Positions 42,900 to 45,800 are shown, counted from the stretch's first letter. The stretch: 64,000 nt of DNA from Escherichia coli (GCF_003334385.1 NZ_QOWN01000007.1), one strand, 5' to 3'. Notes: generated from the letters alone by a model not told the origin. Translations and numbers: made by a program.

Positions 42900-45800
42900 A
42901 TGAGACACTTTATCTATCAGGACGAAAAATCACATAAATTCAGGGCAGTTGAGCAACAGGGAAACGAGTTGCATATCAGTTGGGGAAAAGTTGGCACCAA
43001 AGGGCAAAGCCAGATAAAAAGTTTTTCAGATGCTGCGGCAGCGGCAAAAGCGGAGCTTAAGCTGATTGCGGAGAAGGTGAAGAAGGGGTATGTGGAGCAA
43101 GCGAAGGATAATTCTTTGCAACCTTCCCAAACGGTAACGGGCTCTCTCAAGGTAGCGGACTTATCCACCATTATTCAGGAACAACCCTCTTTCGTAGCAG
43201 AAACCCGTGCGCCTGACAAAAATACAGATGCTGTTTTACCGTGGCTGGCGAAAGATATTGCTGTCGTTTTTCCGCCCGAAGTTGTACACACCACGTTAAG
43301 TCATCGCCGCTTTCCCGGAGTTCCTGTTCAGCAAGCAGACAAATTGCCCCAATTACGTCGCTTAGCCTGTAGTGTGTCGCAACGGGATAATAAAACAGCC
43401 ACATTTGACTTCAGCGCCTGTTCTTTAGAATGGCAAAACACCGTCGCCCAGGCGATCAGTCAGATCGACGGCCTGAAAACAACACAGTTACCATCACCAG
43501 TAATGGCTGTACTCACGGCACTTGAAATGAAATGCACAAGATATAAAGTGCGTGAGGATGTTATGGATCAGATCGTCCAGGAAGGCGGTCTGGAATATGC
43601 TACTGATGTAATAATACACCTTCAACAGATTGATATTGAATGGGATTATGCGAATAATGTCATTATTATTCTGCCGTCTGGCATTGCACCTAGCTACTTG
43701 GAGCAATATTCCAGATTTGAATGACGCCTACGTAAACATTTATCACTGACGGAAGAGTCTCTCTGGCAAAAATGTGCACAAAAACTTATTGCCGCAATTC
43801 CACATATTCCAGAATGGCGGCAACCATTAATTGCTTTGTTATTACCCGAAAAACCAGAAATTGCACATGAAATTGCCCAGCGTCTACTGGGGCAAAAAAA
43901 ATTACCCTCACTTGAGTGGTTAAAAATAGTGGCGACTGATGAGCACATTCTTGCCTCATTAGAAAAATATCACGAACCATATGCCATTTTTGATGATTAC
44001 TATTGTGGTGCGATATGGTCAGCCACCGTATTACAGGAGCAAGGTGTTGCAGCCCTGCCCCGATTTGCTCCCTATGCCGCAAGTGACTACTGCGCCGATG
44101 TGTTGCGTCATATCAATCATCCGTTCGCATTGACACTGCTTATACGTGTAGCCGGGCAAACTAAACGCTGTCACGATCGGATGACGAAAGCCATTGCTGC
44201 GTTCCCACATGCAGCAATGGCGGCACTGACGGAACTTCTTGGGCAAAAAGAAGAGAACAGTTGGCGCATTATGCTAATGACAATGCTTATCTCACAACCA
44301 GCACTGGCAGAACAGGTCATTCCCTGGCTCTCGACACCCGCAGTTGCCGTACTGAAATCATGCCAGCAACAACTGACACAGCCCTCAAACCATGCCAGCG
44401 CCGATCTACTGCCAGCCGTAGTAGTCTCCCCTCCCTGGCTTTCGAAAAAGAAAAAATCGCCGATTCCGGTGCTGGATTTAGCGCCATTAGGCATTGAGCC
44501 AATCTGTTATCTGACAGAAGAAATCAGTAATCAACTTTTGGCGAAATATATCTGGTATTCAAAACACATCACGGTTAGCCATGAAGAAAGTACTACCAAC
44601 CTGTTGGCAAGGATGGGTTTTCAACGACGGATCGCTGGTACATATATTAAAGCTCCCGAAGCGGTAGTTGAGGCATGGCTAAATGAAGATTATTCAACCT
44701 TACTAAGTGAATTTAAGGTGTTTCATTCACCTACCGGGCATTATTGGCAGTTGGGGATTTTGACAACATTGCCGCTGGAGAAAGCAGTAAAAGCATGGAA
44801 TGCCCTTACCCTATCTCCACATACCGATACCGAATACTCCATGTTACATTTTGGACTCAAAGGGTTACCTGGGTTAGTAAACTCACTTGCACGCTATCCA
44901 CAAGAAGCCTTGCCCATCACGAATTACTTCGCAGCGAGTGAGCTGGCTCCTGCCGTCGCCCGTGCCTTCAACAAACTGAAAACGCTACGCGAAAACGCCC
45001 GTAGCTGGCTGTTGAAATACCCGGAACATGCCCTTACCGGCCTGCTGCCTGCGGCGCTCGGCAAAGCCGGTGAAGCACAGGATAACGCCCGCGCTGCCTT
45101 GCGTATGCTTACCGAAAACGGTCATCAGCCATTACTGCAAGAAATCGCCCGACGTTATAACCAGCCGGAAGTAACCGATGCGGTGAACGCTCTGCTTGCG
45201 CTCGATCCCTTAGATAATCACCCGACAAAAATCCCCACTCTTCCGGCCTTTTATCAGCCATCGCTCTGGACGCGCCCGGTATTAAAAGCAAATGCCCAAT
45301 CACTGCCAGATAGCGCCCTCCTCCACCTCGGTGAAATGCTCCGCTTCCCTCAGGAAGAGGCTCTGTATCCGGGATTATTGCAGGTGAAAGACGTCTGTTC
45401 CGCCGACTCACTGGCGGGATTTGCCTGGGATCTGTTTACCGCCTGGCAGACCGCTGGCGCGCCGTCGAAAGAGAGTTGGGCGTTCACTGCGTTAGGCGTT
45501 CTCGGTAACGATGACACCGCCCGCAAACTGACGCCATTAATACGCGCCTGGCCTGGTGAATCCCAGCATAAACGCGCCACCGTTGGGTTGGATATTCTCG
45601 CTGCTATCGGTAGTGATATCGCCCTTATGCAGCTTAACGGCATCGCCCAGAAACTGAAATTCAAAGCATTACAGGAGCGGGCAAAAGAAAAAATTGCCGA
45701 CATTGCCGAGAGCCGCGAACTCACGGTGGCGGAGCTTGAAGATCGGTTAGCACCGGATCTCGGTCTGGATGATAACGGTTCGCTGCTGCTGGATTTTGGC

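Follow-up and report, generated by a model that had tools for sequence, protein, structure and literature searches.

The gene name molR, which implies a regulator of molybdate metabolism, goes back to Lee et al. (1990), as cited in PMC7824862 and PMC8533742. By bioinformatic assignment, WGR is treated as a DNA-binding domain and MolR-like proteins are called transcription factors (PMC7824862). A molR promoter activated by BglJ-RcsB was mapped to the metG-molR intergenic region, in a study whose entry for molR reads 'disrupted in K12' (PMC3950696). The annotation of molR in K-12 MG1655 reads "frameshifted; internal stop". Reportedly, the 1990 phenotype was observed in K-12, in which case the gene that bears the name molR today carried both lesions in that strain even then.

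The molR (yehH) allele described here is located in a stretch of 64,000 nucleotides of Escherichia coli DNA (GCF_003334385.1, NZ_QOWN01000007.1), hereafter the window. With a probability of about 0.92 it is a nonsense allele of recent origin that segregates in nature, null or near-null under neutral decay, and the precursor of the K-12 pseudogene. The finding is known rather than novel, because public annotation already flags the molR pseudogene; the broken allele is real but ordinary and its significance beyond that annotation is small.

The 4.2 kb around the lesion match 5424 of 5426 complete E. coli genomes and lie between metG and yehI, in the gene order apbC, metG, molR', yehI, yehK, yehL (ATPase), yehM (DUF5682), yehP (vWA) and yehQ (SWIM). 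The intrinsic terminator of metG (42769-42802, + strand), a 9-bp stem with six GC pairs followed by a T-tract, precedes molR, which implies that transcription of molR starts from a separate promoter within the spacer at 42803-42899. The tandem paralogue yehI (46704-50336, + strand) starts 9 nt past the molR stop and is intact according to the ORF list, annotation and protein alignment, coding for 1210 amino acids. Directly 3' of the two large genes a conserved cluster, yehK-yehL-yehM-yehP-yehQ (50400-57600), encodes among others the ATP-binding YehL, a DUF5682 protein, a vWA protein and a SWIM zinc-finger protein, a proximity that may be informative about what MolR and YehI do. Compared with complete RefSeq genomes, the segment 40000-64000 is at best 99.5-99.6% identical and has no exact match. 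Codon 293 of metG (41593) is TTG in the window and CTG in all compared strains, a synonymous change (Leu) that is private among the sequences examined. At the other end of the segment, similarity to the window stops at about 61839 in most genomes. The closest relative, SCU-104, has in the region downstream of btsS (about 61290-64000) a DinI-like gene, small hypothetical genes and a gene for an adhesin with a YadA C-terminal domain, and it differs from the window over 63116-63921; this region looks like a variable inserted island or a prophage remnant.

The molR frame (42900-46694, + strand) comprises 1265 codons, i.e. 1264 plus the terminal stop, and its translation has a lone internal stop at codon 275. 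This is an in-frame opal codon, TGA (43722-43724), set in the sequence ...TTT GAA TGA CGC CTA CGT... and followed by a C, giving a UGA-C signal. The initial annotation had read the ORFs starting at 42900 and 43836 as parts of one frame separated only by this TGA, and both the translation and the ORF list (42900-43724, 274 amino acids; 43836-46694, 952 amino acids; both on the + strand and in a common frame) agree with it. Upstream of the stop, a fragment of 274 residues can still be translated (42900-43721, + strand). Downstream, 989 codons plus the stop (43725-46694, + strand) remain open but are unreached by ribosomes starting at 42900; since the probability that 989 random codons lack a stop is about 2e-21, this open frame is not a chance occurrence. 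At 3795 nt the frame is exactly as long as the intact molR of six other strains, and its alignment with these alleles is gap-free, which excludes a second frame-breaking lesion in the window molR. Neither the translation of 42900-46694 nor the alignment disclosed any further break, in accordance with the earlier view that one point lesion interrupts a large gene which is intact in all other respects. The SCU-104 molR is identical to that of the window and carries the PGAP label of a pseudogene, "DUF4132 domain-containing protein, internal stop".

A domain search with residues 1-1181 of MolR, codon 275 being restored to Leu, found a WGR domain at residues 6-69 (42915-43106, + strand; Pfam PF05406, E=1.5e-15) and a DUF4132 domain at residues 988-1173 (45861-46418, + strand; Pfam PF13569, E=9.5e-50). 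The restored frame has thus the WGR plus DUF4132 architecture of MolR/YehI-type proteins, of which the truncated product keeps the first domain and misses the second. The NCBIfam search gave a sub-threshold match confined to the WGR region and nothing beyond, and MolR and YehI had no match among the PADLOC defence models.

The nature of the lesion is defined by comparison with other alleles and with paralogues. Codon 275 is TTA (Leu) in eight of eight intact alleles (OkiPb01683, BL21, HUSEC2011, CP61_Sichuan, GYB01, B20127, NRG857C and Q5). Six of them align gap-free to the window; those of NRG857C and Q5 are more divergent and also intact, and PGAP annotates the intact orthologues as normal coding sequences. 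Position 43723, G in the window and T elsewhere, is the sole site at which all sampled TGA carriers share a base that none of the six gap-free intact alleles has. As the initial annotation had proposed, the flanking translation YSRFE*RLRKHLSLTEES aligns with YehI ...YNEFDLRLRKHLSLAEES... in the protein alignment. In YehI and more distant paralogues the residue at the position of codon 275 is L, M, I, V or F, and it is Q in the most distant group; the position immediately precedes a conserved RLRKHLSLAEE..WQRC block. The paralogue set behind this alignment consists of homologues of the first 531 residues, all of at most 919 amino acids and many of them fragments, and gives no full-length statistics. 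TTA in all eight intact alleles together with a hydrophobic residue in the paralogues identifies the lesion as a derived T>G substitution at 43723 (+ strand), the ancestral codon being the sense codon TTA.

The window allele differs from intact alleles by one base at this codon, and the initial annotation had accordingly considered a sequencing error, with TTA as the true codon. Frequencies were determined with 55-mers centred on the polymorphism, a design in which each 28-base megablast seed must include the variable base. The TGA 55-mer is found in 711 of 5426 complete E. coli genomes (about 13%), with one match per genome, and the TTA 55-mer in 3244 of 5426. An exact TGA 55-mer shared by 711 independent assemblies from many laboratories, hosts and countries, the K-12 lineage included, shows that the stop is real and makes a sequencing or assembly error of negligible probability. 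The roughly 1470 genomes with neither 55-mer have more divergent, rearranged or truncated alleles, as in O157:H7 and ST131, and fit highly divergent or rearranged forms of the locus.

The intact progenitor of the broken allele still exists. The sequence preceding the mutation was reconstructed with T at 43723 and G at 43910 and used as query; it is identical at 3795 of 3795 positions to molR of the broiler-chicken isolates 33-6 and 58-3. The 33-6 gene is annotated as an intact coding sequence (WP_159180915.1) and differs from the window at two of 3795 bases, 43723 among them. The match of these strains to the reconstructed ancestor places the broken allele one mutational step from an extant one, a back-mutation in 33-6 and 58-3 being a possible alternative source of their identity. 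The G>A change at 43910 (+ strand) is a derived synonymous substitution (Ser337) that, among the sampled TGA carriers, is present in the window and SCU-104 only. Nine natural-isolate carriers that were sampled show 0-3 substitutions relative to the window over the 3795 nt of the gene, and 1-2 over the 1500 nt upstream. This small divergence indicates that the TGA allele is young. The derived state, the single step to an extant intact allele and the very low diversity of the TGA haplotype leave recent pseudogenisation, one of the causes initially suggested, as the best supported.

The K-12 allele adds a further stage. MG1655 molR differs from that of the window at the synonymous site 43910 and by an extra G in the GG run at 45745-45746 (+ strand), and at no other position; the comparison also shows that the window strain is not K-12. 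The GG run reads GGG in K-12, causing a frameshift at about codon 949, and the window has the unshifted form. A 51-mer specific for the K-12 frameshift matches 356 genomes, and all 60 of the matches listed belong to laboratory strains of K-12 or their derivatives, among them MG1655, BW25113, DH5alpha, DH1, C600, J53, HB101 and MC4100. About 355 of the 711 TGA genomes are devoid of this 51-mer and are mostly natural isolates. Together with the window, this middle class that has the TGA only comprises SCU-104, ETEC6, O145 RM8995-C1, 720632, AR_0085, JP538, ETEC1734, EC102 and AF44, and the PGAP label of these nine strains is "internal stop" alone. Judging from the counts and the strains sampled, the alleles would form a nested series from TTA intact to TGA (711) and to TGA plus frameshift (356). 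The order of decay in K-12 molR would then be the stop first, followed by the +G frameshift that, among the rows sampled, occurs in K-12 strains only. The suggestion that the window carries a less decayed form of the K-12 pseudogene holds, the TGA being the same and the +G being absent from the window; on sequence grounds the window allele is the earlier, one-lesion precursor stage of that pseudogene. The series also illustrates how widely a single nonsense allele can spread, here to about 7% of the E. coli genomes that are not of laboratory origin. The molR of EcN_Sk combines the TGA with a frameshift whose relative position matches the one in K-12, but it has 195 positions differing from the window plus indels, resembling B2-type alleles such as that of NRG857C. 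Its MetG is identical to that of K-12, and the EcN_Sk locus resembles a mosaic of K-12 and B2 sequence, produced either by recombination or by chimeric assembly.

The deeper comparisons between intact alleles give a dN/dS of about 0.13-0.20, which shows that intact molR is under purifying selection; for the pair CP61 and GYB01 the value is 0.48. The TGA haplotype has six polymorphic sites, five nonsynonymous and one synonymous, and the contrast of this 5N:1S ratio with the N:S counts of intact alleles gives a Fisher p of 0.017-0.03 on these six sites only. Very recent polymorphism shows a raised N:S even in working genes. The 5N:1S ratio accumulated since the stop arose, together with the K-12 frameshift, weakly suggests relaxed constraint. 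The downstream frame is fully open in all non-K-12 carriers sampled, a state that is expected for a young allele and is also compatible with continued use.

The consequences of the mutation can be outlined as follows. The T>G change at 43723 turned Leu275 (TTA) into UGA in a 1264-residue WGR plus DUF4132 protein. Ribosomes that start at 42900 are expected, under the standard code, to be released at codon 275 by RF2, leaving a predicted product of 274 residues that retains WGR and is deprived of about 78% of the protein, DUF4132 included. The remaining 2.97 kb of the frame are probably untranslated because no obvious restart site is present. This untranslated stretch of mRNA might lower yehI expression by Rho-dependent polarity; several C-rich, G-poor stretches of 100 nt are found downstream of the TGA. 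MolR function is presumably lost in the TGA allele, and the later +G frameshift at 45745-45746 in K-12 would represent one step further in decay.

A functional split of the gene, in which the 274-residue WGR fragment and a separately initiated carboxyl-terminal protein (starting for instance at TTG 43836) make a two-part MolR, would be consistent with WGR (residues 6-69) being complete in the first part and DUF4132 (988-1173) in the second, and with the annotation of separate 'WGR domain-containing' and 'DUF4132 domain-containing' coding sequences at the locus in some other strains. The stop is, however, inside a conserved block and not in a domain linker, and the PGAP label is that of a pseudogene. 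Inspection by eye of the 20 nt upstream of the in-frame ATG, GTG or TTG candidates past the stop, at 43836, 43929, 44100, 44103, 44130 and 44181, revealed no obvious Shine-Dalgarno sequence. The scan for promoters and terminators inside molR remained at chance level, with four promoter-like sites versus 4.1 expected from shuffled sequence. Separate expression of the carboxyl-terminal part is unlikely given the lack of ribosome-binding sites and the chance-level internal promoters, and a two-part MolR is accordingly very improbable.

Low-level readthrough was the third cause considered initially. The UGA-C tetranucleotide is regarded as the weakest UGA context in E. coli, and C is the base that follows the stop in molR. 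UGA is the leakiest stop codon of this species: reporters in K-12 BW25113 show readthrough of about 2% at 37 C and 4% at 25 C, which results from competition of Trp-tRNA with RF2 and rises at low temperature and with cAMP (PMC10570021). Native UGA readthrough was demonstrated for nudL (PMC5373646). Such decoding by the near-cognate Trp-tRNA could supply a useful low dose of full-length MolR with Trp275, maintained as a leaky or hypomorphic allele. Phe, also aromatic, is tolerated at position 275 in paralogues, and the downstream frame is intact in nine of nine natural-isolate carriers sampled. The TGA is nevertheless not conserved, being limited to one young haplotype found in 13% of genomes, K-12 has broken the downstream frame further by its frameshift, and the 5N:1S ratio of the changes that followed the stop is suggestive of relaxed constraint. 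The RF2 of K-12 is moreover a weak variant, and with the B-type, non-K-12 RF2 the nudL readthrough product is undetectable (PMC5373646); the window strain is not K-12, and prfB lies outside the window. A maintained leaky stop is therefore improbable. Some trace of full-length MolR with Trp275 is possible, small in amount and with no sign of maintenance. It is decidedly improbable that in the approximately 355 TGA-only genomes the UGA-C is read by Trp-tRNA at the percent level so that the allele is a condition-dependent, low-dose source of MolR and not a null; if it were, the reduced dose would be what let the TGA haplotype spread.

The RNA that follows the stop has no sign of a recoding element. 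The 69 nt from the UGA have a minimum free energy of -7.3 kcal/mol (z = +0.41), and 139 of 200 shuffled sequences fold as well; a SECIS or readthrough-stimulating structure after the UGA was rejected on this basis. A scan of 43500-44000 against Rfam gave chance-level matches only, none of them near threshold. An in-frame UGA within an otherwise long open frame is what a selenoprotein gene would display, the codon being decoded as selenocysteine through a downstream SECIS hairpin. The ancestral residue is nonetheless Leu, neither Cys nor Sec, and homologues have Leu or another hydrophobic residue at this position; together with the absence of a SECIS-like fold and of an Rfam match in the scanned region, this excludes selenocysteine, whose probability is vanishingly small. 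The preferred reading remains a young nonsense allele under neutral decay.

Variation of the locus in other strains extends beyond molR. Upstream of yehK there are three large tandem DUF4132 paralogues in Q5 and O157:H7 2571 and two, molR and yehI, in the window and K-12. The yehI gene is frameshifted in OkiPb01683, NRG857C, O145 RM8995-C1 and JP538, has an internal stop in 720632 and AR_0085, and is interrupted by an IS3 element in 33-6, while the middle DUF4132 copy is frameshifted in O157:H7. Breakage of the paralogues has occurred independently in many strains, although errors in long-read assemblies may account for some of the frameshifts. O145 STEC strains have the K-12-type TGA allele within a segment of about 22 kb, from metG to beyond yehQ (40000-61839), that shares 99.4% identity with the window. 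The three-copy array of O157:H7 at the molR locus is very different. O145:H28 is related to the O157:H7 lineage, and if this kinship holds the metG-yehQ block was moved by recombination. In ST131, molR is cut short by an IS26/CTX-M-15 transposon, and the same truncation was reported in PMC9334617.

The molR allele of the window can be set against four groups of known genes. The natural UGA readthrough genes nudL and pheL share with it a UGA that can be read by a near-cognate tRNA at a low percentage (PMC5373646, PMC10570021), but their stops are native, terminal and followed by short extensions, while that of molR arose recently by mutation inside the gene, with 989 codons of the frame still to follow. 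YehI shares with MolR the DUF4132 domain and the conserved block ...LRLRKHLSLAEES... around the lesion; it is shorter than MolR and uninterrupted in the window, and it begins about 105 alignment columns past the MolR-type amino terminus, so that the WGR region is absent from YehI. The intact alleles, such as WP_159180915.1 of 33-6, WP_001215622.1 of BL21 and WP_032314685.1 of OkiPb01683, are 1264-residue proteins with WGR and DUF4132 and are distinguished by TTA (Leu) at codon 275 and by their annotation as normal coding genes. Studies of the function of the WGR-DUF4132 protein should begin from an intact allele, the exact progenitor extant in 33-6 and 58-3 being useful for this work, or from K-12 repaired by two defined edits. 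The closest counterpart is the K-12 molR' (yehH) pseudogene itself, which occupies the same metG-yehI locus and has the same TGA at codon 275, and which differs by its second lesion, the extra G at 45745-45746 that is missing from the window.
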